64,000 nt of DNA from a virus, in the IMG/VR virus record IMGVR_UViG_3300030329_003597, positions 2,676-66,675 of that record. The stretch is one strand, 5' to 3'. Position 1 is the first letter of the stretch, and every line of letters begins with the position of its first letter. The notes beneath the pieces are model-generated. The model saw only the letters and a list, made by a program, of their open reading frames with translations, was not told where the DNA came from and did no database searches. Of the stretch, positions 2,589 to 62,677 are shown one piece after another. Both the position numbers and the translations under genes were made by a program.

Positions 2589-2652
2589 AAGTAGTATATG
2601 TATTATATATCTCTCATATTCTATGAGATATATAATACTATACTTCTAAAGG
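2589..2652. repeat. long AT-rich inverted repeat, copy 1
   Basis: GTATTATATATCTC (2600-2613) / GAGATATATAATAC (2625-2638), perfect 14 bp, plus an outer stem. Confidence 0.9.
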
Positions 2653-2999
2653 CTCAGCCTCTCTTCCTTACTGCGTATGTACGCTTGTTCAGGAGTTTCA
2701 CCATCTCTAATTTCTAAAGAAATCGCACATCTCGGAGATTTATAACTCGGCTCGACTTCACTCTTCAGGTACGTGGTACATATCTGAGTACGTGCTTGTC
2801 TATGCTCTAACCTTTGGTTATGGCTTAATCTCACCCTCGCTTTACGAGCAAGGTTTCTACCACTAAAATCCTCTACCACCTCTAAAGAGGTAATGTGAGC
2901 AGTCATCTCTTTGAGTAAGCGCATAGCTATACGCTTGTTTTTTGCGCTCGGTTGCTGTTTAGCTAATCGTACAGCTGAGCGTATCTCTGTGAATTTCAT
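2646..2999 (-). CDS. basic early protein, N-terminal paralog of 3197..3457
   Basis: 117 aa; SAV..A......K.IA..LLKE.TA....L.VV shared with the 3197 ORF. Confidence 0.75.
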   Translation of the reverse strand: MKFTEIRSAVRLAKQQPSAKNKRIAMRLLKEMTAHITSLEVVEDFSGRNLARKARVRLSHNQRLEHRQARTQICTTYLKSEVEPSYKSPRCAISLEIRDGETPEQAYIRSKEERLSL

Positions 3000-3010
3000 A
3001 GATGTACGTT

Positions 3011-3121
3011 TTATTGGTTTATTATTAGTGTTGCTATTATCGTAGAGATAATATATCCCATTAGGATAGAGAATGTTACAACACCTGCGACTATTAGTCC
3101 TGATTTTAATTTACTCATCAT
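3011..3121 (-). CDS. small membrane peptide, 36 aa (MMSKLKSGLIVAGVVTFSILMGYIISTIIATLIINQ)
   Basis: Hand-translated; one long hydrophobic stretch; starts 23 nt after the hammerhead cleavage site. Confidence 0.65.
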   Translation of the reverse strand: MMSKLKSGLIVAGVVTFSILMGYIISTIIATLIINQ

Positions 3122-3138
3122 AGCGTGTGAATTGAATT

Positions 3139-3196
3139 GTTACTGACTACCCCCCGAAGGGGGTAGTTTCGTCCATTCAGGACTCGTCAGAGTAAC
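3139..3196 (-). ncRNA. type I hammerhead ribozyme
   Basis: Minus strand reads GUUACU-CUGACGA-GUCC(UGAAU)GGAC-GAAA-CUACCCCC(UUCG)GGGGGUAG-UC-AGUAAC: full catalytic core, three perfect stems, GUC cleavage triplet. Confidence 0.95.
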
Positions 3197-3457
3197 TTAC
3201 TTGCTTAGCGTGGCTAAGTGCTCAAGCAGTTGCGCCTTCGTCATCTTCGATAGACCCTTGATTGGGGTTGGCTTTGACTTAGCTTTAGAAGTCTTCGACT
3301 TCTTCTTCTTAGGTACGACCACCTTTAAGGCTTCCACCTCAGCAGTCAGCTCCTTTAGGAGCTTCAAAGCGATAGCTTTCTTTTGCTTCGTGCAGTTGTA
3401 CATAGCCTTGTTTACTGCTGACTTTGTTTCAGCGATTAGGGATTTTGATTTTGCCAT
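3197..3457 (-). CDS. Lys-rich putative nucleic-acid-binding protein, first early gene
   Basis: 86 aa, very basic; C-terminal LSKMTKAQLLE resembles the first helix of Rho-N/HeH domains. Confidence 0.75.
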   Translation of the reverse strand: MAKSKSLIAETKSAVNKAMYNCTKQKKAIALKLLKELTAEVEALKVVVPKKKKSKTSKAKSKPTPIKGLSKMTKAQLLEHLATLSK

Positions 3458-3471
3458 TTGATTTGGGGTTT

Positions 3472-3540
3472 AAGTAGTGTATGTATTAAATATATCTCTC
3501 GTAAACTACGAGATATATTTAATACTACACTTCTAAGGGG
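3472..3540. repeat. long AT-rich inverted repeat, copy 2
   Basis: GTATTAAATATATCTC (3483-3498) / GAGATATATTTAATAC (3510-3525), perfect 16 bp, plus an outer stem. Confidence 0.9.
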
Positions 3541-3738
3541 GTCAGAGTGAGGTCAGGGGAGAGTAGTAGTATACTACTCTATATAGTAGGGTGGGAGTTG
3601 TCCCCGAGCCGTATAGGGCTACCTTCGGTAAACCAAAGCCAAACGCATATACACGTATCTACACCTACGCTACAACCGATTGGATTTAACTCATTGATTG
3701 ACAGTCAGTTAGAAAAAGCTGAAAAGTGTGGGCAAAAC

Positions 3739-3796
3739 TGCGTACGTTGTGCGTATGCGACTATGCAAGTGCGTTTCGGGTGCGTTTGCGTAGCGT
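3739..3796. repeat. cluster of TGCGT pentamers in the non-coding divergence region
   Basis: TGCGT at 3739, 3750, 3770, 3781 and 3787, plus variants. Confidence 0.6.
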
Positions 3797-3987
3797 CTGT
3801 ATTTACATATAATCCCCAAGCTCTATATTTCTCAAAAAAATTTTCACCAATTTTTTCTACAGGCGTGATTTTCGCCGTTTTTTCCTCTTTTGCGGCGGTT
3901 GCCGAAATCTTTACGATCAAAACTTTACATCAATAAGCCTTAAAAATCAGTTTGTTAGGAAATGGAGCTTAAAGTAAGAGTTTACTA

Positions 3988-4018
3988 TTGATTTTTAGTT
4001 TTTTCTGGGTTAACTTTG
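3988..4018 (+). promoter_or_regulatory. Bacteroidota-type promoter, TTG-N20-TAACTTTG
   Basis: Perfect -7 box at 4011-4018 with TTG at canonical spacing. Confidence 0.6.
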
Positions 4019-4129
4019 CTTTAGTTAATTAAACTATTAGTTATGTTTTTAGTGTATTCATAGAATATTAACTGATAATGTTTATTTAGCTGGGTTCTCA
4101 AGCCCAAGCTATACATAAATAATAGGTAC

Positions 4130-4153
4130 ACCTCCTTTATCAGGGGGTTTTTT
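4130..4153 (+). terminator. intrinsic terminator
   Basis: ACCTCCT-TTATC-AGGGGGT followed by a T run. Confidence 0.65.
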
Positions 4154-4159
4154 ATTCAT

Positions 4160-4167
4160 TATATTTG
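4160..4167 (+). promoter_or_regulatory. late promoter -7 box, TATATTTG
   Basis: TAnnTTTG consensus, 4 nt before ATG 4172. Confidence 0.7.
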
Positions 4168-4171
4168 CTAT

Positions 4172-4600: not shown

Positions 4601-4608
4601 TATCTTTG
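4601..4608 (+). promoter_or_regulatory. late promoter -7 box, TATCTTTG
   Basis: Consensus match, 4 nt before ATG 4613. Confidence 0.7.
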
Positions 4609-5494: not shown

Positions 5495-5502
5495 TATCTT
5501 TG
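5495..5502 (+). promoter_or_regulatory. late promoter -7 box, TATCTTTG
   Basis: Consensus match, 4 nt before ATG 5507. Confidence 0.7.
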
Positions 5503-6931: not shown

Positions 6932-6939
6932 TATATTTG
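6932..6939 (+). promoter_or_regulatory. late promoter -7 box, TATATTTG
   Basis: Intergenic consensus match upstream of 6952. Confidence 0.65.
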
Positions 6940-14407: not shown

Positions 14408-14415
14408 TATATTTG
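14408..14415 (+). promoter_or_regulatory. late promoter -7 box, TATATTTG
   Basis: Intergenic consensus match before portal. Confidence 0.65.
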
Positions 14416-20523: not shown

Positions 20524-20531
20524 TATATTTG
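20524..20531 (+). promoter_or_regulatory. late promoter -7 box, TATATTTG
   Basis: Intergenic consensus match. Confidence 0.65.
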
Positions 20532-26640: not shown

Positions 26641-26648
26641 TATATTTG
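26641..26648 (+). promoter_or_regulatory. late promoter -7 box, TATATTTG
   Basis: Consensus match immediately after the terminator. Confidence 0.7.
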
Positions 26649-28881: not shown

Positions 28882-28889
28882 TATATTTG
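28882..28889 (+). promoter_or_regulatory. late promoter -7 box, TATATTTG
   Basis: After the terminator, 4 nt before ATG 28894. Confidence 0.7.
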
Positions 28890-29682: not shown

Positions 29683-30548
29683 TGCCATTTGTAGATATAT
29701 CAAATAATGGGATGAATTATATCACCCTACGTCAATTAATAAATGATTATATTATCACTTTAGATGGTGATGATTTTGCTAGTAACGCATCAGATGCTGC
29801 TATAAGAAACTTTGCTTTAAGAGGTATTCGTGAGTTTGGATTTGATGTTACATCAAGAGTTAAGTCTATAAAAAGAACTATAAATAGCAATAGCACTATT
29901 GATTTGCCAGACGACTATGTAGATATAGTTAAAATGGGACAAGTAGATGGCGATGGGATATTAAGAGTATTTAGGCAAAATAAAAACATTAATTATTCTC
30001 AAAGGATTTTTCAAGAAGACGGCATGGATACTACTTCTACATCTGATAGTGATGAAGGTCCTCTTGATATACCTAATAACCTTATACTTAACAGAGAAGA
30101 TGATAAATCTTCTACATCTGGTGGTGGAGCTGACGCAGGGGATTTAGATTTTTATATATTTGAAAACTATGTTCATCAGGGAGGTTTAGGTCAGTTATAT
30201 GGTGCTGGAGGTGCTCACGCTCCTGGACAGTATAGAATAAACCTAGATCAAAATAGAATAGAAATTGAGACAGGTTCTGGAACTGGAGATATCGTTTTAG
30301 AATATATCTCTGATGAAGCTAGGTCTACAAACCCAGTAATACATGTGTATGCAGAAGAGGCCTTAAGGTGTTATATATATTATAAGCTTTGTGAAAGAAA
30401 ATCTACGATTCCTGCTAATGAGAAGACTAGGGCTAGAGCTGAGTATTATAACGAGAGAAGAAAAGCAAAAGCTAGATTGTCAAACTTTAGCAAAGAGGAA
30501 GCGCTTAAGACTATTCGTAAAAACTTTATGCAGGCACCTAAGTATTAA
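29682..30548 (+). CDS. tail ring/adaptor protein
   Basis: LPDDYVDIVK, IVLEYISD, AEEALRCYI motifs. Confidence 0.7.
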   Translation: MPFVDISNNGMNYITLRQLINDYIITLDGDDFASNASDAAIRNFALRGIREFGFDVTSRVKSIKRTINSNSTIDLPDDYVDIVKMGQVDGDGILRVFRQNKNINYSQRIFQEDGMDTTSTSDSDEGPLDIPNNLILNREDDKSSTSGGGADAGDLDFYIFENYVHQGGLGQLYGAGGAHAPGQYRINLDQNRIEIETGSGTGDIVLEYISDEARSTNPVIHVYAEEALRCYIYYKLCERKSTIPANEKTRARAEYYNERRKAKARLSNFSKEEALKTIRKNFMQAPKY

Positions 30549-33500
30549 TGATAGATAAAGTAACACCACAGAGTTTAAATCAAGACTCAGACTCAAGAGT
30601 TAGGCCTTCAAATCAAATGATTGATGCGCTTAACCTTGTTTTTGAAGATAGCTTTAAAAATACCCCTATGACTGCTGGGGGAGCTAATAATGATTTTTCA
30701 GGAGATTATGCTGCAATAAAGCCATTACCTTCGAATAGAGACATAGAAGATATATTAGATTTAGATGACAACTATTTTGTTGATGATGACAGTAGGATCC
30801 GTGTTATTGGCTCAGTTACTGATGATGTTTTAAATGTTATTTACTTTTTTGTTTGGTCAGATGACGTAGATCAAATGGGTGTTTGGGCTTGGGATAGAGA
30901 TGCTATTTTGCCAGGAAACAATTTACCAGGATCTTACATAAAAGTATATACGTCTGAAAAATTTAATTTCCCTAGTGATGGATTTGTAAAAGGTGATGTT
31001 GTTCATATCGGTCAGAGATATGAATCAACGGGGGCAGCATCAGCGTTTATGCCTGCTACGGACCAAACTAATATTGGAGGAGCCGACATTAGTTATAGCT
31101 ACGATAAAAATGTAATTTTATATTTTACTGACAATAGAAATGAGCCCAAAAAGTTAGATGTATTTAGGGCTATGACATATGAAACATATATTGAACAACA
31201 ATATGATGATTATGATGAATTAGATTTTATTACTGCTTGTCCTAAAACCCCTTTAGATCCTATAACATTTGAGTTTGATATAGATCCTAATAGGTCAATC
31301 TCTCATTTTGTTGATATACCAGGAATGATATTTGCTTATCAGCATTTATATATAGGTGGCGTTGAAAGCGCTATTTCTACTCATTCTAAGTTAGCTGTCC
31401 CTAGAGGCCTTGTGTCTCAAGGAGTTAATACTGGAGTTACTGTTCAAGAAAATGTTTGCATATTAACTATTCCAGAAGTTTCACCACAAAACGAAAATAT
31501 TGTTAATAGAACAAAAGAGATTGAAAAAATAAGGATTCTTGTTAGGTTTGGTAATACTGGTGTGTTTAAAACTATTGATGAGATTGATCCAGTTCAATTA
31601 GGAGGGTTATTACCTGGCTATAGATTCTATAATGACAGAGTGTTAGTTTCTGTAGCCAGAAGAACTATTAATAAAAACTATGACAATTTACCTAGAGTAG
31701 CTCAAGCTCAAACTGTAATTAATGATAGGCTTGTATATGGTAACTATATAGAAGGATATGATGAGGTGGATGTTGATGCTACAATAAGCGCTATATATAA
31801 ACCAGAAAATGCTAATTTTCTTGATTTAGATATTAAGGTAACTGAATTTATTTCTGAACATACAAACTCTCCTGTAGTTTCTATTATGGGTAATCAAAGA
31901 GTCGCTGGATTTAAAATATCATTAGCTGAACTTCCAGATGCAATTCCTGAAGGCAGCGTGTTTAATTTAAGCTTTACGTGTAGGCCTGAAAGAGGGTTTC
32001 ATATATACAATCAATCTAGATCTTTTCATGGGAGCTCATTTAAGGGGGATATAAGAAATCCAGAAGAATATGCTTCATTTGGCGAAGATGCCGATTTTAA
32101 CAAGAATATTGATGGTGGAATTGTCAATGATTTTTATAAAAATGGTCTTTCTTTTTTTGGTAAAAATGAAGGCGTAAAGTTTATTGATCCAGACGATCCA
32201 AGCGGAGCATTATTATTTAATAAGTGGAGGTTTGATAATCCTACAGCACCTGCTGGTATAGAAGAACAAGAAGTAGTTTATGGGACTTCTGCAGCTAATC
32301 CGTTTATCATACAGAGCGGTCTTATGCAATTTGGCCTTACATTTTCTACTAATTATGGGGTGATGCAAGGTGGAAAAGATTTAATAAAGGAGGTAATTGC
32401 AGCTATATTTACTGGATCTCCATTACCAGAACCTGCGGGCGTGCCTTTTGCTCAAATACTTGGAGAACCTACAACCGAAACTGAATATGCATTTGATTTA
32501 GGGTTGGATCAAAATGGATCTAAAATTATGGTAGCCAATATGAATGGAGCTCAAGATGGTCTGTCTAGAAAAGATTTTGTCGTTGCTGTTGGCCATAAAG
32601 ATCATATATTTAATAATGGCCCAGAGAACGTCCCCCCTACAGGATATTTTATAATAAATAAAGCAACAGTTAGAATTGGTCTTGAGGTATTTCCCGATCT
32701 TAATCAAAGGTATCCTAATGATCCTGACGATATGTATGTAGGATTAGATATTAGAGAGATAAATGATGCTGAAATTAAAACGTGTATACCTCATATAAGG
32801 AAAGATTACATGGAATTTGCATCAAATGAAGATGATCCATATACCCCCGTTCTAGATGAAAATATGGAAGGAGGGTGGCAATGGCTAAATGAACAGGCTT
32901 TAATTGATGCGTACACCTGGATGACCTCTAGTGGTGCAAAAAAATTCCAAGCGGTAGGTATTTGGAATAATCTTTATATTGATTATTGGAAAACGTATTC
33001 TAGAAGTTATGTAGCGTCTTATGACGTAGAGACAATATTAGGTACTCCTGGTTCAAGCAATAATAATATATTCTTTTGGCGAGACTCAGAAATTCAAGAT
33101 GAATATGGATCCATTCAAGCTGACACTGGTGTAAACCTTACTGTTGGGACAATGCTTGGTTGGTTACAGCAACAACAAAACATAGAGCAACAGTTTCTAC
33201 CTGATTTTAGCTTTGCATCTCAACAAGCTAGTGAAACATGGAGGTTTAGAGTTGGTGGCTATTTAATAGGGCCTGGAGGAAATGCAAATACCCCAGTTCA
33301 ATTAATAAACTTTTCAGAAGAAATAGAGGATAAATATGAGGATTTAATGCAGTCATATATTGAAGGCAACTATCCTACTTATCCTGACCAATATAATATG
33401 TGGGAAGTGTCAGAATTTTGGTCAAGCAATATGCAAATAAAGCCTTTATGTCGTTTTAGTTTAATAGACGGTATAACTTCTGGAATGGGAGGCAGGAGGT

Positions 33501-36500
33501 GGGGTACTGTTCAACACCAACACGGCGAGCATCCTGAGACTGGAGCCCCTTTAATGCAGTGGCTAACAAGTATTCCTGCTCAAGGAAGTGTAAGCGGGCA
33601 AATAGCTTGGAGTGGACAAATACGTCAACGATTTCAGATACAATTACTAAATCTACCAGGAGCGTACTGGGGTAATGATACAGGATTTGGCATTCAACAT
33701 TTATCTGCTTGGCATTTAGAGTTTTTTTCTAATACTTCTTTTACTAGTCATATTGCTAGATTTAGTATTGAGGCGAGTAGCAATTTTGATGGAAGTGATT
33801 CTACTTGGAGTGATCCAACTTATGATTGGAGTGAAGGTGACATGAAATATATAACAGGTTTACCTCATGGGGGTCCTGGACAGTGGTATTTTACATCTTG
33901 GTATGAACAAATAGCAGATAATTATGCTGATTTTGCTACAACTGCTCTTGGTTTTGGGCTTGGGGCGGTGGATTATCAATCAAACGCTTGGGTAGAAATA
34001 AATACTCTTAGTCAGTTTGTAGAGTTAGGAGCTGAGTATGGTCATTTTGGATCATTTAAAAGTAAAGCTAATCATGAGTTTGCTGTTGTATATTACGATG
34101 AAAGGGGAAGAGCTGGGTTTGCTAATTATTTAGGAAATTTATATGTTGCTGGATATTCGTCTCAAGATATTGACAGGAATGGTTTTCAAGGTAGGGTAGA
34201 GGTTGAGATACGAATTTTAAATGATCCACCAGAATGGGCTCATAAATATCAAATTGTATATTCTGGAAATACAACGTATGATAATTTTATACAGTATACT
34301 ACTGGTGGAGCAACCGCAGAAAGACCACAAACGGGCGAATATATTACTAGTGATCAAGGAGTAATACACGTTAATTTAGGTTATCTACAGGGTAGTAATA
34401 TGATCTCATACTCTTCTGCTTATGGCGCTGTAAATAAAGAAGGGGGCAAGGATTTATATACATACAAAGAGGGGGATCAATTAAGAATACTTTCATATAG
34501 TCAAGGGGGAAGCGAAGAAAGATTTTATCCTCATGAATATGTTTTTGATATTTTGGGAGTACAACTTACATCAAAAGTACCAAGTGAAAATCCTTATCAT
34601 GCAGCTGTTTATAGTACAGATGGAGATGAAGGCACTGTTGATAGTAATTTAATTGGGCAATTCTTAATGTTAAGAAATAATCCTTCAACAGGAGGGTTTT
34701 CATATGATTCCGTTATTTCTGGCGAGCATTTATGGAATAACGGAACTATAGTTGAAATTTTTTCTAGGAAAAAGGGTAAAGACGAAGATGATAGAATTTA
34801 TTACGAAATAGGTGAAGTCTTTAATGTGATAAGAGATGATAATGGAAATCGTTACCATGAAACAAACCCTATTTTATTAAAAGATGGTGATATTTTTTAT
34901 AGAAAAGTTGCATTAAATTACCCCCCATTTGAAAATGGTCAATATGTTAATATCATTAACAATAACAGAAAAACCCCTAACTTTGTAAATTATTGGTTAG
35001 AATCTGAGACGTTTACCGATAAGCTTCCAGGATCTGATTCTAAAAATTTCGGTAAAGCTACATTTGTAGTTCCAGGAGCTACTGCAAGAAGGAAACTAGC
35101 TTCATTAATATATTCAGATAAAAATAATTACACTGCTAGGTTTAATAAATTTACAAACTTTAATGGTCCTGAATTAAACTTTAAAAATTTACCTAATGAG
35201 TATGGTGCTATAAATTACATATTAAACGATTACGATAATATTCTTGTTATACAAGAAAATAAAGCTAGTTCTGTTCCTGTTAGTAGAAATATTTTATCTA
35301 CAGCAGGCGGTAAAGAATCCTTAATAGCTTCAGATAAAATACTAGGTACGCAAAAGTATTATCCAGGAGATTATGGGGCTGACGGAAATCCAGAAAGCGT
35401 AACTAGAGCTGGAGAAAATGTATATTTTGCTCACAAAGGTAAAAGGCAAGTATATAAATGGAGTAGAGATAAAGGGGTGCAGGTTATATCTGATATTGGC
35501 ATGAAGTCCTATTTCAATAATATTTTTCAAAGGGCTATAGAGGATGAAGCTATGGGGGAAGGTCTAGTTAGAGTTGTAGGGGGATACGATCCATTAAGAG
35601 ATGAATTTATTTTATCCGTTCATAATATCCAAGATTTAAGAGAATATGAAAATGATTATGATCCTTTTGAGGAAGTTATAGATGATGATCCTGGTGGTGA
35701 TGATCCTGGGGGTGGTGACGATACTGATGAGTGTGACGAGTTGTGTGCTGAATTTCTTGTTGAAAGTAATAGCTCAATATTTACAAGCTCTATGGAATTT
35801 CAGCCTGGAGATCAGTTTCAAGTACATTATACAATAACGAATATTGGGGAGGGAATAGGAGGTTTTGCTAATGATGATTTTGCTTCTTATCCATTTAATC
35901 AAGAGGGTCAACCTACTGCTTATATGTTTGGAGACTGGATAGACTTTGTTGTTCAAGATGCAAGCGCTTTTGTTGTCTACCCTTCATATACTTATGATCC
36001 AGATAATGGTTCAATCCCTATAATGGATCAAGACCCAAATATAAATCTAACAACTATAGATCTTGGGTGGACAATAGAATATGAACCACCACTTAATGAG
36101 CAATTAGCATCTTACTATCCACAAAGTATACCTGCCGCTCCAGGTGGATGGCCATTATTATTCCCTGGAAACACGATGTCCCTTACAGTTACTTATCAGG
36201 TACCTATGGATTATACTCCTGGAGATTATAGTTTCTTTACATCGTTTAATTTTGCATCTTACGACATTGATTCATTTAATGCAGGATTTAACTTAAACCC
36301 TGATTATGGAATAGGAGGGTCAACAAGATATTTTGATATCCCCTGTTGTTACACTCAATCAAAAACAATTATTCATCGATTTACTGTCGATAAGCCACCA
36401 ACAGGCGGTGGCGGTCCTACATTGCCTTCAGATGATTATTCAGGCATTATTACTAATAATGATAATAAAAGATTAGGAAGTTCAGATGAAAAATCTATAA

Positions 36501-36646
36501 ATATATACGACACTAACGGTGATGGTGTTGTAAATCCTTTAGATATTATTGCTTCAGATCAAACAGAAAGAGAGAATCGTGAGGAACAAATAAATACCAA
36601 AACTACTGAGATAGAACAAGGAAAGGATAAAATAAGAAAGAAATGA
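30548..36646 (+). CDS. tail stabilization/muzzle protein (P22 gp10-like), N-terminal part with large insertions
   Basis: LNQDSD.R, LYFTDNRNEPKK, RLVYGNY, VVYYDERGR, NPESV...YFAH, GMKSYF, GGYDP motifs. Confidence 0.8.
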   Translation: MIDKVTPQSLNQDSDSRVRPSNQMIDALNLVFEDSFKNTPMTAGGANNDFSGDYAAIKPLPSNRDIEDILDLDDNYFVDDDSRIRVIGSVTDDVLNVIYFFVWSDDVDQMGVWAWDRDAILPGNNLPGSYIKVYTSEKFNFPSDGFVKGDVVHIGQRYESTGAASAFMPATDQTNIGGADISYSYDKNVILYFTDNRNEPKKLDVFRAMTYETYIEQQYDDYDELDFITACPKTPLDPITFEFDIDPNRSISHFVDIPGMIFAYQHLYIGGVESAISTHSKLAVPRGLVSQGVNTGVTVQENVCILTIPEVSPQNENIVNRTKEIEKIRILVRFGNTGVFKTIDEIDPVQLGGLLPGYRFYNDRVLVSVARRTINKNYDNLPRVAQAQTVINDRLVYGNYIEGYDEVDVDATISAIYKPENANFLDLDIKVTEFISEHTNSPVVSIMGNQRVAGFKISLAELPDAIPEGSVFNLSFTCRPERGFHIYNQSRSFHGSSFKGDIRNPEEYASFGEDADFNKNIDGGIVNDFYKNGLSFFGKNEGVKFIDPDDPSGALLFNKWRFDNPTAPAGIEEQEVVYGTSAANPFIIQSGLMQFGLTFSTNYGVMQGGKDLIKEVIAAIFTGSPLPEPAGVPFAQILGEPTTETEYAFDLGLDQNGSKIMVANMNGAQDGLSRKDFVVAVGHKDHIFNNGPENVPPTGYFIINKATVRIGLEVFPDLNQRYPNDPDDMYVGLDIREINDAEIKTCIPHIRKDYMEFASNEDDPYTPVLDENMEGGWQWLNEQALIDAYTWMTSSGAKKFQAVGIWNNLYIDYWKTYSRSYVASYDVETILGTPGSSNNNIFFWRDSEIQDEYGSIQADTGVNLTVGTMLGWLQQQQNIEQQFLPDFSFASQQASETWRFRVGGYLIGPGGNANTPVQLINFSEEIEDKYEDLMQSYIEGNYPTYPDQYNMWEVSEFWSSNMQIKPLCRFSLIDGITSGMGGRRWGTVQHQHGEHPETGAPLMQWLTSIPAQGSVSGQIAWSGQIRQRFQIQLLNLPGAYWGNDTGFGIQHLSAWHLEFFSNTSFTSHIARFSIEASSNFDGSDSTWSDPTYDWSEGDMKYITGLPHGGPGQWYFTSWYEQIADNYADFATTALGFGLGAVDYQSNAWVEINTLSQFVELGAEYGHFGSFKSKANHEFAVVYYDERGRAGFANYLGNLYVAGYSSQDIDRNGFQGRVEVEIRILNDPPEWAHKYQIVYSGNTTYDNFIQYTTGGATAERPQTGEYITSDQGVIHVNLGYLQGSNMISYSSAYGAVNKEGGKDLYTYKEGDQLRILSYSQGGSEERFYPHEYVFDILGVQLTSKVPSENPYHAAVYSTDGDEGTVDSNLIGQFLMLRNNPSTGGFSYDSVISGEHLWNNGTIVEIFSRKKGKDEDDRIYYEIGEVFNVIRDDNGNRYHETNPILLKDGDIFYRKVALNYPPFENGQYVNIINNNRKTPNFVNYWLESETFTDKLPGSDSKNFGKATFVVPGATARRKLASLIYSDKNNYTARFNKFTNFNGPELNFKNLPNEYGAINYILNDYDNILVIQENKASSVPVSRNILSTAGGKESLIASDKILGTQKYYPGDYGADGNPESVTRAGENVYFAHKGKRQVYKWSRDKGVQVISDIGMKSYFNNIFQRAIEDEAMGEGLVRVVGGYDPLRDEFILSVHNIQDLREYENDYDPFEEVIDDDPGGDDPGGGDDTDECDELCAEFLVESNSSIFTSSMEFQPGDQFQVHYTITNIGEGIGGFANDDFASYPFNQEGQPTAYMFGDWIDFVVQDASAFVVYPSYTYDPDNGSIPIMDQDPNINLTTIDLGWTIEYEPPLNEQLASYYPQSIPAAPGGWPLLFPGNTMSLTVTYQVPMDYTPGDYSFFTSFNFASYDIDSFNAGFNLNPDYGIGGSTRYFDIPCCYTQSKTIIHRFTVDKPPTGGGGPTLPSDDYSGIITNNDNKRLGSSDEKSINIYDTNGDGVVNPLDIIASDQTERENREEQINTKTTEIEQGKDKIRKK

Positions 36647-41372: not shown

Positions 41373-44300
41373 ATGGACGAAGAAGAAATTTTACAATACA
41401 TTCAAGATCAGCGTGACAGCGGAGTAGACGACGATAAAATCGGTATGCAGCTGCAGATGAAAGGTGTTGCTGATTTTGACACGTACTTAAAAAAAAAAGA
41501 CGATACTTCGATCTCGCCCTCTGCTTCGGAAGGGGAAGGTACGGAATCAGAGCAGATTACAAGTCAGCAAACAGGACAAGGAGCTGGTTCTTCGGTTGTA
41601 CCTGTAACTCAAGATGATCCTACTGTAAATACTATTGCTAGCGGCGAGCAAGACTCGTCTACTAATTCTATTACTGGTCAGGTAATAACTCCTTGGACAG
41701 ACACCCCTGAAAATAGAGCGAGATTAGAGATCGATCCAATGCATTATGACGGTTTTCAAAAGGGTGCATTTATAAAAACTATGGAGGTGTTAGATCCACA
41801 GTATATAACGCCAGAGATAGAGACATACTTTCATAATTTCGTTTCATCTAACGACTGGTGGTGGAATTCAGTAGGGGCTAATGTCAATGGTATAGCTGAA
41901 GAGCTTGCAAAAAATGAAGAATATCTATCTGCAAACGACATAAGCGTTCCTATGTTGGGAACACCAGTAGCAAGTCCTTATGGAGCTTATGCTCCACCTC
42001 GTAGTGAAGAGGATATAATGTTTGATAAAGTTGCTGCTGTAAAAAAACTTTTAACGCAAAATATTAATGACAGTGCTGTAGATCTTTTACAATCTAGAAT
42101 GCCTGCTGATATAAAGGAGAGCAAAGAAGCGCAGTTATATATGGAGCAATTTATGTTAGAAAATTATGGGGCGATGCTAGATCTAACTGGGGAAGGCGAA
42201 ATAGGTAATACTCCTTTTCTTCAGTTTGATGGGTGGCAACCTAGCACATATTATGGCGCTGCAGGTGGCCCAGGATTTAGGCCTAAATTTTCTGGGTATT
42301 TGGTAGATAGATATGATGCTGCAGGTATTGATTTAATAAATGGAATTTATAATTTCTTTGGTGGGGATGCGAAAACAGTAGTTGAAAATCGAGAGATTGC
42401 TGAAAAAATACGTGCTAATACGCTTCAGTTTGAAACTACTATGGTTGGCAGTTTTACAGATGGAGAGTTTTTGAGAGGGTTAAAACAAATGACAGGATTT
42501 GTAGCTGAAGCGACCCCAGTTATGTCAATATTAATACCAACTGCTACAGTTACTACAGTTGCTACTGGTGGGGTTGCTGCTCCATGGTGGGTTACGGCGG
42601 GCCTAATAGGTTTAGAAGGAGCAACATTAAGTACAACAATTGAAGCCGCTAGAACTCGTGAACACCCTATGTTTAAGAGGTATACGAAAGATGGGGTGAC
42701 TATAGGGTATTATGAAATGATGGAGGCTACTGGTGGTGATCCAGAGCTTATGGCTCAGTATGAATACAGCTTTGATGATTCAGCAAGATTAGGTCACTTA
42801 AGTACTGTCTTTGGAACTGACTTTGTTGCTTCAGGAGTTACATCATTCTTTTTCTTTAAAGCATTAAAAGGCGCTACAACTCCAAAAAATATAGGGCCTA
42901 ATATGAATAGCTGGTGGAATGCTCACCTTGCAAATATGGGTTATTCTGTACCTATTAATAGCGTAACTTCTTCTACCGCAGCTATGGTTCAATATATGAG
43001 TTTGAATCCAGATGCCACTCAAGAAGAAGTTTTTGAAGTTGGATTAGATGTAGCCTTAGGTACTGTCCCTATAACGATAGGGATAACAGGGACTGGTTCT
43101 GCTATTAATTATGCTCATACAAAAGCTACAGTAGCAAATGCTTTAGCTAGAGACGCAGTTGGAAGAAATGGTGGTAATGTTAAAATACATCAACAGCGTA
43201 AAGTGCTTTTAGAAACAATAAGAAAAAGCAAAGATCCAAATAGCGCTGAAGCAATAGCGGCTGAAAGGATGTTGGTTGATTTAGAAGAACAAAGACTCAG
43301 CACTATGACTACTGATGAAAACTTCTATTTGAATATGGATCCAGAAGATTATCATGCTATTGTGGATTTACATAGGAGTTATAATAGTAAACTTCGTCAA
43401 TTAAATCAGCTTGATGATCCTGACTCACCTATAGGTAGAGCCTTACAAAAAGAGCTAAATGAAAATATACAATTAAGGCAAAATATAGAAAAGCTTTATG
43501 AGACGGACCCTGTTGTAGATGCAGATCCTACTTCACCTAAGCCAGATATATTTCAACCTACTATCGAAGGGCCTGATGGGAAGCCAGTACCATTATCATT
43601 TACACCTGGACTATCTAAGTGGTGGTACGTTGAATTCTTTGATAAGTACGGTGATGTAAACATGCTACAAAGAAGTATTATGGAGGCTTTGGACACTGAA
43701 AACCAAGGTGCAAGACTTTCTTTAATGCAAGATTTTGAAGTGTTACAAAAGCTGTCTACCTCAAAAGCCGCTCATCAAATAGAAGAGATGGTAAATCTAA
43801 GATCTCAAGATGGTGGGCTGATAGATCAACTAAGGATTCTACAAAAAAATACACCTCAAGACCTTTATCAAAATCTACCAGAGGTATACTCTAAAGATAT
43901 TATAGGCCTTTATGATAGGTGGGCTGTTTCAAAATTTGCTCCAGAAAGAAACAAGCAAATACTTGCTGATAATAAAACGGAACTTAATGCTTTAAAAGCA
44001 AAAGAAAAGCCAACTTCTGCAGACAAGAAACGAATGGCTTTTCTTGAAGAGAAAATTGCAGAAAGAAGAGGTAGTGGTATGGCTGATGAAGAAGCTGCAG
44101 ACTTCTTAAATTCTTTACCTGAAGATTTGAAATTAGCTTTTGAAAAAGTTAGGGAGGAACACAGATCTATTCAGCAAAACACTAGAGACGCTGCTTTAGA
44201 GTATGGCTTTATAGATCAAGCTATGTACAATAAGCTTCAAGCTAACGCTGAAAACTACGTAACTCTTACTGGTGACGGCATGAAGTCTGTTGATGGTAGT

Positions 44301-46586
44301 ATATCTCTAATTGATAATGATATAGTAGCATCTATCTTCCCACAAAAGTCTCAACAAGGGGGTGTACCTGATGGTTTAAGAAAAGCTTCTGGTCGTAGCG
44401 ATGAAACAGGTAGTATATTAGGCAAGACTATAGATCAAAATACACAGATACATATAGCAGGGCAAAAGAATGTGGCTCTTAGGGGGTTGTACGAGATGCT
44501 GCTAAACAATCCAAACTCTAAACATTATTCTATATCTGACCAAGGTAACTCGTCAGCTAAAAATACAGTAATGGTTTACGTAGATGGTCAACAAAAGTTC
44601 ATCACGTTTGCTAACGAGGCATACGCAAAACCTTTTAAGACTCAAGCCCCTAGCGATAATGAAGCATACGTTAGGTGGGTTCAACCTATGCAGAGGTTAT
44701 TTAGTAATATACCAAAGATGTATACCCAATGGTCTACTTCATTCTGGGCAGGTAATAGTGCAAGAGACTTTCAAGGTTCTTTAGTAAACGCAATAAGTGC
44801 AGCAGAAAAAAAGTTTGGGTATGCTTTATATAACGCTGAAGGCAAACCTATAAATATAAAACAATTAGCAAAAGACTCTCACCTTGTAGGTAGAGGTGAA
44901 TTCTTTAAAGCTTTTAAAGCTATTGCAGCCGATGAGTTTGGCCCTGGAAATAATTATAGGGGTGCAGATAATGCGCTATATCAAGAATATAAAGCTCACG
45001 GAGGAAAAACTGGTTGGGCTTTTAGAACACCTTTAGAAGATCTTCAAAAAACATTACAAAGAGAAGTTGATTCTGGAGTAAAGGGTCAGAAAGCAACAGA
45101 GTGGATGTATAAAAATACATTTGGCCTTATTGAGTCTTTTAATAATACATTTGAAAACGCTTTTAGATTTCAAGTATATAAAGGTTTAAGAAATCAAGGT
45201 GTTGCCCCAGACTATGCCGCAGCTGTAGCAAAAGATGTAAGTATAGACTTTAATAGATCGGGTAATACTACCCCGATGTTAAGCTCTATGAAGTTCTTCT
45301 TAAACGCTAGTTTGCAAGGTGCTGACATGACTGTACAAACTAGTACTGCATTAAGACCTAAAGTAGATTTTGAGGGTAATGTAAGGAACCCTTGGCAGAG
45401 GATGACAAATTCTCAAAAAATTCTTGGAGGAGCTGTTGGGTTTACCTACATGTTAACTCAATGGAACCAAGGCGTTAGTGAAATAGATGATGATGGAGTT
45501 TCTTTTTACGACAAAATACCTGATCAAGTAAAACAAAGAAATCTTATTATTATGCATCCTGGATCTCCAACTGGGGAAAGAACTCTTATCCCTAAGTGGT
45601 ATGGATTTGGCACGTTCAATGATATGGGAATGATGATAGCTGAGGTTCAAAGCGGTGAAAGAAGCGCTAGTGATGCAGCTTGGTTTTGGGCTTCTTCTAC
45701 TGTAACAAATATGTCGCCAGTACACTTTGGAGGTGTAGCTAGCGAAGAAGATCCTACAAAAGGTGTAGATCCAGTAGATCAGCCAGGACTTGTTATCGGG
45801 GCGTTATCTCAAGTAGATCCTTTAGCTCCTATTATTGATGTTGCTACTAATGTAGATGGTTTTGGTAATCAAATAGCTGCAGAAGATAAACCTGGAGAAG
45901 CTAGATCTTCTCAGGGGTATGATTCCCCAATAGTTCTTGAACAGATCGCTCAGGTTTTAAATTCAGCCACTGGTGGTAGCGATGAGGTGAGTGGTGATAT
46001 TGACTTCAATCCTGACAAATTAAATTACTTACTTCAAAATTATCTGGGTAGTACTTATATGATGTTTGGGGATGCTGCAGAAGGAATTTTAGAATTAGCA
46101 GCTGATCAAGACAATCTAGATACGTGGCCTATAATAAAAAAGTTCTATGATGAAGACTACGAAAAATCTGCTTATGGGAATTATTATTCAGCAAAACAAG
46201 TTGTAAATACATACTTGGCTGAATTTGGTAATATAGAAGATCTTCGTGAAAATAAAGATAAGCCTTTGCCGAGTCGTGACGAAAGACTAGCCGACTATGA
46301 AGCTGTAGAGGAAGAAGCGGGGAGTGCTAAACAGAGATATGGTTATGCTATGGCTATGGATGAAATATTTACAAAAATAGATGGTGATATGCAAGAGATA
46401 ACAGAAGCTAAAAAATTATTACAAAATAAACAAGACGCTTTAGAGTATCATATGTTCAATCTTGAAGTGGCAGATGAGTGGGGGGCGCTAGAAGATAAGA
46501 TATACAAACTAGAGCTAGCTGAAATGGAATTAATGGAAAACGCATTAAAACAATATTATAAATTTTACAGAAAACCTGAAGAATAA
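41373..46586 (+). CDS. large ejection protein with LPD38-like C-terminal region
   Basis: 1737 aa; hydrophobic segment near residue 400; ENAFRF..Y, AKDVSIDFNRSG, FFLNASLQG, IPKWYG motifs. Confidence 0.75.
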   Translation: MDEEEILQYIQDQRDSGVDDDKIGMQLQMKGVADFDTYLKKKDDTSISPSASEGEGTESEQITSQQTGQGAGSSVVPVTQDDPTVNTIASGEQDSSTNSITGQVITPWTDTPENRARLEIDPMHYDGFQKGAFIKTMEVLDPQYITPEIETYFHNFVSSNDWWWNSVGANVNGIAEELAKNEEYLSANDISVPMLGTPVASPYGAYAPPRSEEDIMFDKVAAVKKLLTQNINDSAVDLLQSRMPADIKESKEAQLYMEQFMLENYGAMLDLTGEGEIGNTPFLQFDGWQPSTYYGAAGGPGFRPKFSGYLVDRYDAAGIDLINGIYNFFGGDAKTVVENREIAEKIRANTLQFETTMVGSFTDGEFLRGLKQMTGFVAEATPVMSILIPTATVTTVATGGVAAPWWVTAGLIGLEGATLSTTIEAARTREHPMFKRYTKDGVTIGYYEMMEATGGDPELMAQYEYSFDDSARLGHLSTVFGTDFVASGVTSFFFFKALKGATTPKNIGPNMNSWWNAHLANMGYSVPINSVTSSTAAMVQYMSLNPDATQEEVFEVGLDVALGTVPITIGITGTGSAINYAHTKATVANALARDAVGRNGGNVKIHQQRKVLLETIRKSKDPNSAEAIAAERMLVDLEEQRLSTMTTDENFYLNMDPEDYHAIVDLHRSYNSKLRQLNQLDDPDSPIGRALQKELNENIQLRQNIEKLYETDPVVDADPTSPKPDIFQPTIEGPDGKPVPLSFTPGLSKWWYVEFFDKYGDVNMLQRSIMEALDTENQGARLSLMQDFEVLQKLSTSKAAHQIEEMVNLRSQDGGLIDQLRILQKNTPQDLYQNLPEVYSKDIIGLYDRWAVSKFAPERNKQILADNKTELNALKAKEKPTSADKKRMAFLEEKIAERRGSGMADEEAADFLNSLPEDLKLAFEKVREEHRSIQQNTRDAALEYGFIDQAMYNKLQANAENYVTLTGDGMKSVDGSISLIDNDIVASIFPQKSQQGGVPDGLRKASGRSDETGSILGKTIDQNTQIHIAGQKNVALRGLYEMLLNNPNSKHYSISDQGNSSAKNTVMVYVDGQQKFITFANEAYAKPFKTQAPSDNEAYVRWVQPMQRLFSNIPKMYTQWSTSFWAGNSARDFQGSLVNAISAAEKKFGYALYNAEGKPINIKQLAKDSHLVGRGEFFKAFKAIAADEFGPGNNYRGADNALYQEYKAHGGKTGWAFRTPLEDLQKTLQREVDSGVKGQKATEWMYKNTFGLIESFNNTFENAFRFQVYKGLRNQGVAPDYAAAVAKDVSIDFNRSGNTTPMLSSMKFFLNASLQGADMTVQTSTALRPKVDFEGNVRNPWQRMTNSQKILGGAVGFTYMLTQWNQGVSEIDDDGVSFYDKIPDQVKQRNLIIMHPGSPTGERTLIPKWYGFGTFNDMGMMIAEVQSGERSASDAAWFWASSTVTNMSPVHFGGVASEEDPTKGVDPVDQPGLVIGALSQVDPLAPIIDVATNVDGFGNQIAAEDKPGEARSSQGYDSPIVLEQIAQVLNSATGGSDEVSGDIDFNPDKLNYLLQNYLGSTYMMFGDAAEGILELAADQDNLDTWPIIKKFYDEDYEKSAYGNYYSAKQVVNTYLAEFGNIEDLRENKDKPLPSRDERLADYEAVEEEAGSAKQRYGYAMAMDEIFTKIDGDMQEITEAKKLLQNKQDALEYHMFNLEVADEWGALEDKIYKLELAEMELMENALKQYYKFYRKPEE

Positions 46587-54038: not shown

Positions 54039-54899
54039 GTAGCTTAATAATAATTTGTGACGACTTGAGTGCTTGAGTCGCTTCAAAGCACGGTCACGTA
54101 TTTGCCTTACTCTCTCGGAAGAGAGATCAATCATCTCTGATATTTCTTCTAATGTCTGAGGGTGTTCAATACCTATACCAAAATAAAGCTGTAAGATTCT
54201 AGACTCTCTAGGGGTAAGGCCTCTTAAAGCTGATTGCACTTCTTGCTTTAGACTTTCATCAACTAATCCTTGATCAGGATCATCAAGTGATGTATCCGCC
54301 ATAAAATCCCCTATCTTACTTGACTTATCTTCATCGCTACTTGCAGGCGCATCTAAACTCATGTGTCTGTTAGCATTTTCGAGAATTATTTTAACATCTT
54401 TAGCCGTCATGTCTAACTCGGCAGCTATCTCTAAAATCGTTGGGGCTCTCTCAAGGTTCTGCTCTAGAGACGCATAGATTCTTTTAATTTTTATTAAAGA
54501 TCCTATTTTGTTTTGAGGCAGCCTCACCAACCTTGCGTGATCGGAAAGCGCAGATAATATATTTTGTCTCACCCACCATACGGCATAAGATATAAACTTA
54601 AAACCACGAGTCTCATCAAACCTTTGGGCTGCACGAATCAATCCCAGATTACCTTCACTAATTAAGTCAGGTAGGCTAAGTCCTTGATTTTGATACTGTT
54701 TAGCAACAGAAACAACGAATCTTAAGTTCGCTCTAGTTAACTTATCTAGTGCCTGCTTGTCCCCATTACGTATCCTTCTAGCTAATTCCGTCTCCTGATT
54801 TATATCAACCATATCCTCCTTAGATACGTCTGATAAATATCTATCAAGGCTAGGTTGTGACCTGTCAGTTATTTGCTGTGTAATTTTAAGCTGTCTCAT
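54030..54899 (-). CDS. rpoD: sigma-70 factor of the Bacteroidota primary (RpoD/SigA) type
   Basis: MRQLKIT start, ANLRFVVSVAKQY, FDETRGFKFISYAVWW, region 4 TLEEI...ERVRQI; no region 1.1, as in Bacteroidota. Confidence 0.93.
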   Translation of the reverse strand: MRQLKITQQITDRSQPSLDRYLSDVSKEDMVDINQETELARRIRNGDKQALDKLTRANLRFVVSVAKQYQNQGLSLPDLISEGNLGLIRAAQRFDETRGFKFISYAVWWVRQNILSALSDHARLVRLPQNKIGSLIKIKRIYASLEQNLERAPTILEIAAELDMTAKDVKIILENANRHMSLDAPASSDEDKSSKIGDFMADTSLDDPDQGLVDESLKQEVQSALRGLTPRESRILQLYFGIGIEHPQTLEEISEMIDLSSERVRQIRDRALKRLKHSSRHKLLLSYLN

Positions 54900-55332
54900 T
54901 TGCTGTTTCTCTTTCTAACTTTTTTAATAATCTTTTCTTAGTTAATTTAAGTGTATTAATTCTTGAATCAATTGAATCTAATTGAGTCCTTAATAAGTAA
55001 TCTTCAAGTATGTTATCTACTATATCTTTAACTACCTTATATGTGTCAGCATATCCTGGCCAATAGTCTAGGTTTGGAAAATGCTTTCCCGTGTAATAAC
55101 TACAGGTAGACCTATCTACACCTATAGCATCACCTATCTCCATTGTAGTGCAATAAGGTGTAAGAGCTACACCTATAGCTGCTCTAACTTGTACGTGATG
55201 CCGTACACGAGATTTACTTCTCACAATACCTAAGGTTTCATATACCTCAGTTACTGCTTGAGTTATAGCGTCTGTTCTTTTCATTTTATTAAATTTTATT
55301 TTTTGACAGTTTGTTACATAATATATCTTCAT
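54886..55332 (-). CDS. HTH protein, DnaA C-terminal-like
   Basis: KSRVR..VQVR...TTMEIGDAIGVDRST; start may be the internal MKRTD. Confidence 0.55.
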   Translation of the reverse strand: MKIYYVTNCQKIKFNKMKRTDAITQAVTEVYETLGIVRSKSRVRHHVQVRAAIGVALTPYCTTMEIGDAIGVDRSTCSYYTGKHFPNLDYWPGYADTYKVVKDIVDNILEDYLLRTQLDSIDSRINTLKLTKKRLLKKLERETANETA

Positions 55333-55348
55333 AAAATGAAGAGATATA

Positions 55349-55870
55349 TTATATAACTAACCTCTCTTCTGTATCTGGATGGATGTAAGATTTTTTGTAA
55401 TTTATTATCTCGCAACTTTTTAATTGAAGTAAATCATTTAATACGAGCATAGTTATTTTATCTTTTCTATCCTTCCGTTGATATATTTTTTTGTATGCGT
55501 CTTTTTTATATAAGACGTAATCGTTAAAGTCTACGTTGCCTAAACACCAATCTAAAAGTTCTTTTCTTTCTACACGCACGAACCCCCCTACCTCACATAT
55601 TTCAAAAGCTATCCATTTTGCTTCACCTAATAGCCATCCGAGATCACCATGCACGTTTCTAAACTCCACCCATATTTCATCAGGTAAATTATTACCTTTT
55701 ACATCAACACCATCAGGCCCATGCCAAAAATCTACATGAAGCTCTATATCTTCATCACGGGTAGACTTATTTATACCGCTAAATATTCTTGCATATCTAG
55801 TAGCACAAACTCCACCATCTTTCCAAGACTGCTTTCGCCTCTCGTTAAAAAGGTTGTTTATATTGCTCAT
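55349..55870 (-). CDS. PD-(D/E)xK nuclease-like protein
   Basis: HVDFW...VDVKG...IWVEF...GWLLGEA. Confidence 0.6.
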   Translation of the reverse strand: MSNINNLFNERRKQSWKDGGVCATRYARIFSGINKSTRDEDIELHVDFWHGPDGVDVKGNNLPDEIWVEFRNVHGDLGWLLGEAKWIAFEICEVGGFVRVERKELLDWCLGNVDFNDYVLYKKDAYKKIYQRKDRKDKITMLVLNDLLQLKSCEIINYKKSYIHPDTEERLVI

Positions 55871-62617: not shown

Positions 62618-62677
62618 CCTTTAGATGTAGTGTATTATATATAATTCATACTGAATTATTATATATAATACTACTAC
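62618..62677. repeat. long AT-rich inverted repeat, copy 3, inverted relative to copies 1 and 2
   Basis: GTATTATATATA.../...TATATATAATAC, inner ATAATTCA-TAC-TGAATTAT; flank TCTAAAGG on the minus strand matches the copy 1 flank. Confidence 0.8.

Follow-up and report, generated by a model that had tools for sequence, protein, structure and literature searches.

How a long transcript that carries many early phage genes might be divided into separate messages is the question raised by the minus-strand region 2590-3534 of a viral genome, IMG/VR record IMGVR_UViG_3300030329_003597. We analysed 64 kb of this genome (hereafter the window: the whole stretch studied, 64,000 nucleotides, corresponding to positions 2676-66675 of a single 66,675-bp phage contig), in which the region carries two genes for small basic proteins, a hammerhead ribozyme motif and a small hydrophobic open reading frame (ORF) between these genes, and a long hairpin at either end. 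A first-pass annotation made from the sequence alone had read these elements as one self-processing immediate-early module. We report that comparison with relatives supports the hammerhead motif as genuine and conserved, and that the position of the motif would let it sever the first cistron of the transcript from those behind it, in line with the first-pass annotation. The reading that we prefer, and to which we assign a probability of roughly 60%, is that the hammerhead separates the first cistron from the later ones, while the hairpins act as processing or stability sites and probably also as points of homology for module exchange.

The region forms the very start of a leftward block of approximately 16 kb, since the gene map places the minus-strand ORFs from 3457 onward. 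Read along the minus strand it begins with an AT-rich upstream hairpin (3473..3534; roughly 22-24 pairs interrupted by a single bulged base; folding energy as RNA -26.2 kcal/mol, z = -7.8), the 3' end of which lies 15 nt ahead of the ATG at 3457. Then follow the first early gene, encoding the Lys-rich basic protein ORF86 (3197..3457); the type I hammerhead motif (3139..3196; three-way junction fold, z = -3.8), a 58-nt element that begins at the base directly after the ORF86 TAA stop; an ORF of 36 amino acids (aa) encoding a candidate single-pass membrane peptide (3011..3121; grand average of hydropathy, GRAVY, +1.48); the gene for ORF117, a basic paralog of ORF86 (2646..2999); and an AT-rich downstream hairpin (2590..2647; -25.7 kcal/mol, z = -5.5), which begins inside the ORF117 stop codon. 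Folds and the ORF list thereby confirm the positions given to these elements by the first-pass annotation, including the distance of about 15 nt between hairpin and first ATG, and the gene map agrees with its placement of the region at the start of the early leftward block. Its claim that the two basic proteins are paralogous is likewise borne out: BLASTP aligns them with E = 8e-8 and 32% identity over 73 aa, and the paralogy covers the N-terminal ~45 residues.

The hammerhead core is complete in the window (CTGACGA and GAAAC; consensus CUGANGA / GAAA). The minimum free energy fold shows an open stem I of 6 bp, a stem II of 4 bp capped by a 5-nt loop and a stem III of 9 bp capped by a 4-nt loop. 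Cleavage is predicted after the C at 3145, i.e. between 3145 and 3144 and 23 nt before the next ATG, and the distance from cleavage site to next start codon is 23-25 nt in the window and in three related loci (L001, L003 and L005). Across 16 distinct variants the core is invariant save for the free position N7 (C or T), and the loop of stem III varies freely. The A15.1-U16.1 pair (columns 31-52) is A-U in 16/16 variants and the non-G residue H17 is a C after stem III in all of them. Stem II occurs in three forms linked by compensatory changes, with pair 16-26 as UA, GC or AU and pair 18-24 as CG or UA; these two pairs change on both sides in 8 and 7 of the 16 sequences, respectively, and the covariation score was reached by 0 of 500 shuffles. 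Taken over the 16 variants, 97.9% of the cells assigned to pairs are paired, compared to 16-58% with slid partners. A strict structural descriptor, run on both strands, gave one match per close relative and no other in the loci or in a 7-kb minus-strand segment of the window, while a covariance model built on the 16 variants found the window and 24 loci to carry one copy apiece. No hammerhead was detected in the distant clade by Rfam E-value search, the strict descriptor or the covariance model.

Searched at the gathering threshold, the whole window gave no Rfam family. Among the Rfam hammerhead families compared (RF00163, RF00008 and RF03152), the best match was to RAGATH-1-hammerhead (RF03152), which reached 35.8 bits against a gathering value of 56.3 (search of 1.4 kb, E = 6.7e-4); the other scores were 28.9 versus 34 for the type I family in L002, and 20.0 versus 48.5. 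Being below every gathering score, the element is therefore no member of a listed family by the curated Rfam cut-offs. The extra hairpin that RAGATH-1 has upstream of stem I finds its counterpart in the window within the ORF86 coding sequence, and this counterpart is not kept in L003, L005 and L062. A pattern search of viral contigs returned 38 stretches; by eye, five came from contigs of the same relatives, five were other hammerhead-like motifs and the rest were judged to be chance matches. This search thus also brought up apparently complete hammerheads of other sequence in unrelated viral contigs (L039:696-732, L017, L019, L022 and L029), some of these contigs being 59 kb and 100 kb long.

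To place the locus among its relatives, 9 loci from IMG/VR, 57 metagenome contigs and the window were compared (67 rows in total, 60 of them non-redundant). The gene for the short paralog precedes that for the longer one in 41 of 47 judgeable loci (37 full pairs and 4 in which the second gene consists of the C-domain only; the other 6 have a single gene). A long hairpin, i.e. one of at least 14 pairs, follows the second gene in 48 of 51 judgeable loci and precedes the first gene in 28 of 41, and the hammerhead is present in 21 of 54. All hammerhead loci belong to one subclade, the second protein of which is ~80% or more identical to ORF117 of the window. Neither the hammerhead nor the hairpin family was found in MW202828, the closest GenBank relative as judged by its terminase. 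The synteny predicted by the first-pass annotation holds for the paralogs and for the hairpins on either side, and fails for the hammerhead and for the membrane peptide, which is variable or absent. Its proposal of one obligate system is not supported, in that the hammerhead is confined to a subclade, the membrane peptide is replaced or missing elsewhere, and the hairpins are a general punctuation of the early block (see below).

The junction between the paralog genes is instructive. Among 35 distinct junctions of relatives it carries the hammerhead in 16, a GC hairpin only in 7 and another small hydrophobic ORF in 2, and it is short or overlapping in 10. In the seven junctions with a bare GC hairpin after the first gene this hairpin aligns with stem III of the hammerhead, so that both kinds of junction have in common a stable hairpin closing the first cistron at its 3' end. 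The hammerhead-free junctions of L006, L008, L009 and L072 show, in the same order as the ribozyme-bearing ones, a similar word after the stop codon, a GC hairpin corresponding to stem III, and a leader; in such relatives the post-stop word resembles the stem I 5' strand, and the second gene's leader resembles the cleavage site together with the 3' strand of stem I. Since these counterparts of stems I and III are present, the catalytic strand appears to have been gained or lost in place, in one direction or the other. The relatives therefore offer a rare side-by-side view of one locus with and without the catalytic strand, and gain or loss at a fixed site becomes directly testable. Modules have also been exchanged at the boundaries: the C-terminus of the first gene product comes in alternative versions, the second gene also occurs in forms with the C-domain alone, one small ORF stands in for another, and in L065 the junction lies inside the hammerhead.

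The small ORF between the hammerhead and ORF117 belongs to this variable part. Its 36-aa sequence is present only in the window among the loci; seven loci have, at the same position, an unrelated 27-aa hydrophobic ORF with frame-preserving substitutions, and nine other distinct hammerhead-bearing junctions have no small hydrophobic ORF. DNA contigs from two sequencing runs join 2999 straight to 3135 and so skip the 36-aa ORF. In the distant relatives L085 and L098 two further small hydrophobic ORFs lie between the paralog genes; because these are unrelated, a tiny membrane peptide would have arisen, or been inserted, several times at this slot. Judged by these comparisons, the membrane peptide is an accessory and exchangeable insert.

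Turning to the hairpins, the genome has five with at least 14 pairs, whereas 20 dinucleotide shuffles gave 0.2 on average and never more than 1. The five are members of a single family, all lie inside the minus-strand block, where they fill most of the few larger intergenic gaps, and they split the block into five segments. Two are those already described, before the first gene and after the 117-aa gene; the others are located after a 74-aa ORF (genome positions 2252-2302, outside the window), in the 64-nt gap before a 202-aa ORF (copy 5; 62632..62671, minus strand) and before the last two genes (copy 4; 55309..55361, minus strand, in between the final genes of the early block, with the sigma-factor gene following). 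The first-pass annotation had the hairpins bounding a special cassette, a view that does not accommodate three further occurrences of the same family along the block.

The stems comprise 22-28 pairs with one or two small bulges. For the upstream hairpin 0 of 200 shuffles folded as well; it includes a 16-bp perfect inverted repeat (3483-3498 / 3510-3525), and in relatives it shows compensatory substitutions as well as paired insertions. When 19 copies, taken from eight loci and the window, were folded together with RNAalifold, the consensus had 15 pairs and compensatory double changes were present at 11 of them; these alignments support structural selection on the hairpins. At the upstream position at least three unrelated stem sequences are found across the loci, each forming a long stem. 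Loci with proteins that are 35-45% identical have exactly the same downstream hairpin sequence, down to the loop. Copies within a genome have a common core, which differs in L006-type genomes; L008-type genomes have the same core as the window together with proteins that are only ~40% identical. No copy is followed by a U-tract, the stems are AT-rich and their 3' flanks A-rich, and a terminator scan listed only an inner 7-bp part without a true T run, so the hairpins do not qualify as intrinsic terminators. A stem of ~20-22 bp or more, as for RNase III-type hairpins, is present, and we infer that the hairpins are transcribed. We favour a role as RNA processing or stability sites, by analogy and because of their length, their place in one packed transcription unit and the conservation of structure, not sequence, at the upstream site.

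ORF86 (86 aa, 22 Lys, pI 10.3) has an N-terminal helical-hairpin domain common to ORF117, a Lys-rich linker and a short C-terminal helix, while ORF117 (117 aa, pI 10.1) combines the paralogous N-terminal domain with a family-specific C-terminal domain. Their paralogy is far clearer in distant relatives, where the N-domains of both genes align with ~70% identity. ORF86 is conserved in the relatives. Homologs of ORF117 are rare: 21 matches were obtained in a word-indexed search, and a profile search gave 35 cluster representatives out of 1.84 billion. In GenBank phages no match was obtained by DNA searches, whether near or distant, or by tblastn with ORF86 and ORF117; Pfam and PHROG searches of ORF86, the 36-aa ORF and ORF117 gave no significant family, and an ESM Atlas search with ORF86 and ORF117 gave no usable match. 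In the AlphaFold2 model of ORF117 the N-terminal helical hairpin has a predicted local distance difference test (pLDDT) value of ~90, the remainder is low, and the predicted template modelling score (pTM) is low as well (0.33); Foldseek with this low-pTM model gave 0 matches at E <= 0.001 in BFVD and PDB, the top rows being designed helical hairpins. Prediction of a complex between the N-domains of ORF86 and ORF117 scored 0.43 versus 0.00 for the best control and was classed as 'weak support'; in calibration, this mark was attained for 58 of the 80 solved complexes and for 2 of the 110 mismatched pairs tried, with passes at or below 0.60 being more often wrong than right; at least 94% of the contacts agree between runs and the pLDDT of the partner is at least 75. 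As basic products of the first early genes, ORF86 and ORF117 could be nucleic-acid binders. Many distant ORF117 homologs end in an acidic stretch followed by ...PF (L007:3992-4420, L008:3992-4417, L009:3992-4411, L099, L101 and L102; proteins P0023, P0041, P0045, P0047, P0049 and P0052), a tail that is missing from ORF117 of the window and that is reminiscent of the C-terminal tip of the bacterial single-stranded DNA-binding protein.

Upstream of the first gene a 700-nt divergent non-coding region adjoins the start of the leftward block. On the minus strand (3535..4170) several blocks of it are conserved in alignments of close relatives, and it contains ACGCA-rich repeats at ~3725-3790 and a run of small hairpins; a short hairpin at ~3561-3581 (9-bp stem, 3-nt loop) is kept by compensatory changes in L005. 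This region might serve as a leader RNA or an origin, or might represent a genome end. A promoter-like sequence is present at the other end of the region, between the downstream hairpin and the next gene, where TTTG is followed after 20 nt by TACATTAG (2564-2533, minus strand). The latter is one mismatch from TAnnTTTG, which we take to be the -7 promoter element of Bacteroidota. Read as a sigma-70 site, the same stretch gives TTGGAG-17-TACATT (2563-2535) with 8/12 matches, which is below the threshold of the sigma-70 scan and hence unlisted. In the close clade the -7-like part is conserved and the -33/-35 part is not, and by eye such a sequence was seen behind only copy 2 of the five hairpins. 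What the first-pass annotation called a host-type promoter after hairpin 2 is therefore not confirmed: as a sigma-70 site it is weak, with 8/12 matches only and a -35 part that is not conserved, and it fits a Bacteroidota promoter better, albeit with conservation of the -7-like half alone.

In the reading that we prefer, a transcript would enter from the divergent region, pass the upstream hairpin and continue into ORF86. The hammerhead would fold during transcription and cleave itself at the predicted site, between 3145 and 3144, an activity in vivo that we infer from the conserved motif. This would leave an ORF86 mRNA that terminates with the GC-rich, 9-bp stem III and bears a 2',3'-cyclic phosphate, an end that should resist 3' exonucleases, and downstream cistrons that begin with a 5'-OH and a short, unstructured leader of 23 nt. 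The stability and translation of the first gene would in this way be uncoupled from those of the later genes. The further hairpins would divide the block into segments, most likely as double-strand-specific (RNase III-type) processing signals or as stability signals, and they probably also provide homology for the exchange of modules. If the hammerhead is active, the locus would represent a natural case of a ribozyme that fixes where the first early mRNA stops (3' end) as well as where the next cistron starts (5' end), in a marine Bacteroidota phage; leader structure is thought to matter greatly for translation in Bacteroidota hosts. One of the 20 listed sequencing runs is an RNA library, and a 153-nt contig from it covers 3304-3455 within ORF86. 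Contigs reveal neither RNA ends nor strand, and this one, which is compatible with a stable first mRNA, is a weak hint that proves nothing; nor do the stretches that no RNA contig covers.

Several observations weigh against this reading. The scores of all Rfam hammerhead families stay below their gathering values, and covariation is confined to two pairs of stem II, stems I and III being uninformative on pairing because both barely vary. In the window, loop II has a complement in a 5-nt word that is present two times in the 3' tail; by eye, no covariation of such a pseudoknot was seen in the relatives, the common stem II variant lacks the complement, and no supported tertiary contact linking stem I to stem II was found. 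Since no covarying contact ties loop II to the 3' tail, self-cleavage might be slow at physiological Mg2+. In the commonest variant an additional U separates the core from stem II. In L065 (90-145) the 5' strand of stem I is missing and a different upstream gene is joined directly to the core; this copy is either inactive or marks a point of recombination within the ribozyme. Of the 54 judgeable relatives, 33 keep the genes and lack the hammerhead, which is thus dispensable. As to the hairpins, they are near-perfect DNA palindromes with equal sense and antisense folding energies and few G-U pairs, and this palindromy, together with a core common within the genome, fits a DNA-level protein-binding site as well as an RNA structure. 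For the promoter of the early block, no TAnnTTTG and no listed sigma-70-type match is present on the minus strand at 3535-4170. Finally, the RNA-library match is limited to the one contig inside ORF86.

Some of these points bear on whether the motif is a ribozyme at all. Were it an inactive relic or a look-alike, the conserved element would simply be a GC hairpin after the first gene, and sub-threshold Rfam scores, minimal stems I and II lacking a supported tertiary contact, a frequent extra-U variant, the broken stem I of L065 and relatives that keep only the GC hairpin would all be in order. In a relic, however, changes would be expected to accumulate in the core, whereas the core positions are invariant in 16 variants that do differ in their loops, at N7 and, through compensatory changes, in stem II; the strict descriptor moreover has no other match in the loci or in the 7-kb window segment on either strand, and we regard a relic or look-alike as quite improbable. 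The hairpins might act mainly on DNA, either as palindromic sites for a dimeric regulator or as stem-loop/promoter recombination modules of the kind known as PeSLs, with RNA processing secondary or absent. Their near-perfect palindromy (with strands equal in energy) would suit this, as would the downstream hairpin that is sequence-identical, including its loop, next to diverged proteins, the promoter-like TTTG-20-TACATTAG behind hairpin 2, and the exchange of modules at hairpin boundaries (C-termini, small ORFs and the L065 junction); PeSLs are described (PMC4122927) as conserved terminator and promoter motifs that mediate insertions and deletions in early regions. Yet by eye just one copy in five has a promoter-like sequence behind it, the space from copies 1 and 5 to the next ATG is only 15-25 nt, no DNA-binding regulator emerged as a candidate, and the unrelated upstream stem sequences (at least three) all keep a long stem, which fits selection on structure and not on sequence. 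Action mainly on DNA is in our view unlikely, though it deserves to be kept in mind.

The integrated system of the first-pass annotation, in which the two basic paralogs bind the hairpins as RNA or DNA and form, with the ribozyme, a cassette-specific self-processing immediate-early module, draws on the recurrent order of short paralog, long paralog and following hairpin, on the strongly basic nature of both proteins, and on the predicted association of their N-domains at the weak level given above. The hairpin core, common within a genome and different in L006-type genomes, is also as expected for a genome-encoded reader. The proteins and the core do not obviously co-vary, however, because L008-type genomes keep the core of the window with proteins that are ~40% identical; neither the hammerhead nor the membrane ORF is conserved together with the paralog pair, hairpins are also located far from the cassette (five copies along a 16-kb block), and Pfam, PHROG and Foldseek gave no nucleic-acid-binding fold or family, all of which makes such a module improbable. 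A looser combination, which we rate as similarly doubtful, would keep the hairpins and the two basic proteins as a punctuation system, the proteins perhaps forming a hetero-oligomer that reads the core on RNA or DNA and controls processing, stability or read-through for each segment; the hammerhead would then have been recruited in one lineage on a pre-existing GC hairpin and would set the ratio of the paralogs. The least probable of the alternatives is that the hairpins are transcription stops and that a first-early basic protein allows read-through, so that antitermination of the lambda N/nut type would time the early block. The arrangement does resemble pL-nutL-N (a leader hairpin, a small basic first gene, then further hairpins), and the hairpins do divide the block into five segments; but no hairpin has a U-tract, while GC hairpins of the canonical kind, with a T run behind them, are present in the late block on the plus strand; the 22-28 bp of the stems are unlike the short boxB hairpin, and the proteins are Lys-rich or mixed without a match to a known family.

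The wider genome gives this locus its setting. Minus-strand ORFs run from 3457 down past the contig start and resume at the other contig end down to 54030, forming the tightly packed leftward block of ~16 kb that ends with a sigma-70-family gene. This last gene (54030-54899, minus strand) encodes a full-length factor with regions 1.2, 2, 3 and 4 and is preceded by a hairpin-family copy. The plus-strand ORFs (4172-54038) include terminase, portal and virion proteins. The large terminase subunit (TerL) is 48% identical to that of the uncultured podovirus MW202828 and ~42% identical to those of Flavobacterium 'elemo'-group phages, and Cellulophaga phages are also among the 105 matching records. 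TAnnTTTG is present at most 45 nt upstream of 11 of 40 plus-strand gene starts versus ~1.5 expected (4160-4167, 4601-4608, 5495-5502, 6932-6939, 14408-14415, 20524-20531, 26641-26648, 28882-28889 and others), which, if these sites are Bacteroidota -7 promoters, suggests that the structural block uses host-type or sigma-mimic promoters; no such site was seen for the early block. These plus-strand sites often lie directly 3' of a GC hairpin with a T run. On the strength of the TAnnTTTG motif and the terminase relatives the host of this uncultured marine podophage is probably a member of the Bacteroidota; the sequencing runs that contain window sequence are marine metagenomes.

Two giant ORFs are present in the virion block (30548-36646, plus strand, 2032 aa; 41373-46586, plus strand, 1737 aa), the second of which has an LPD38 domain and matches the C-terminal third of PHROG profiles that are ~3400 positions long. 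A virion RNA polymerase that would use the hairpins as N4-like promoters was considered and dropped: the two giant ORFs have no DFDxD motif, no Pfam polymerase domain and no sequence relatives in PDB, and the window has no second occurrence of the short hairpin motif that lies upstream of the first gene. The contig reads N at ten bases outside the window, genome positions 256-265.

What is noteworthy about the locus is the apparent gain or loss, in place, of a ribozyme on a conserved hairpin, in an early block without a recognisable promoter. The hairpin family and the basic paralogs are abundant in marine metagenomes; both are uncharacterised and have close functional analogues. In our literature searches, which were not exhaustive, no described system with this layout was found. 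Like lambda N/nut, the block begins with a small basic protein and has an RNA hairpin in its leader; unlike lambda, its hairpins are 22-28 bp long compared to the short boxB and are not terminator-like, the proteins show no homology, and no element like boxA was noticed, although none was looked for.

In T7, one RNase III site lies between the promoters and the first gene. According to PMC3867540, T7 has five RNase III signals in a precursor of ~7000 nt, cuts in a single strand can leave protective 3' hairpins, and an idealised RNase III substrate has 22 bp. The window resembles this in having several intergenic hairpins in a long phage transcript, with stems of about two helical turns or more and bulges that could limit cutting to one strand and so leave a protective 3' hairpin. 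It differs in that its stems are AT-rich near-perfect palindromes with a core common to the copies, a feature that RNase III sites do not require, and cleavage in the window is putative (PMC3867540). The T4-type PeSLs share with the window a repeated conserved stem-loop in an early region, bordering small variable genes, with gene content differing exactly there. Unlike them, the window has a promoter-like sequence at only one of five copies and much longer stems without T runs, and recombination is deduced from the comparison of contigs only (PMC4122927).

For the hammerhead the precedents are more direct. Hammerheads flank genes in the polycistronic RNAs of prophages and cleave native transcripts of ~2 kb in vitro (PMC3088659). 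That of the haloarchaeal virus HF2 lies 13 nt before the first ORF of an early transcript, the mapped 5' end of which is at most 3 nt from the cleavage site (PMC3088659); the corresponding distance to the next ATG in the window is 23 nt. Like the phage hammerheads presented there (Perreault et al. 2011), the element of the window stands between operon genes, has the same core and three stems, and would cut a transcript into gene-length pieces. Unlike them, it belongs to another phage group, is present as a single copy per genome directly after the stop codon of the first early gene, has no evident pseudoknot or loop-loop contact, and has a stem III that persists as a bare hairpin in ribozyme-free relatives. 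The first-pass annotation knew of no described system of this layout, a claim that gives way to these precedents, i.e. phage hammerheads between genes (PMC3088659) and the hairpin signals of T7 (PMC3867540). Since the cutting of early polycistronic RNA by ribozymes and hairpins is already established in phages, our finding extends known biology and does not open a new category: the locus is a further example of the known ways in which phages cut their early transcripts.

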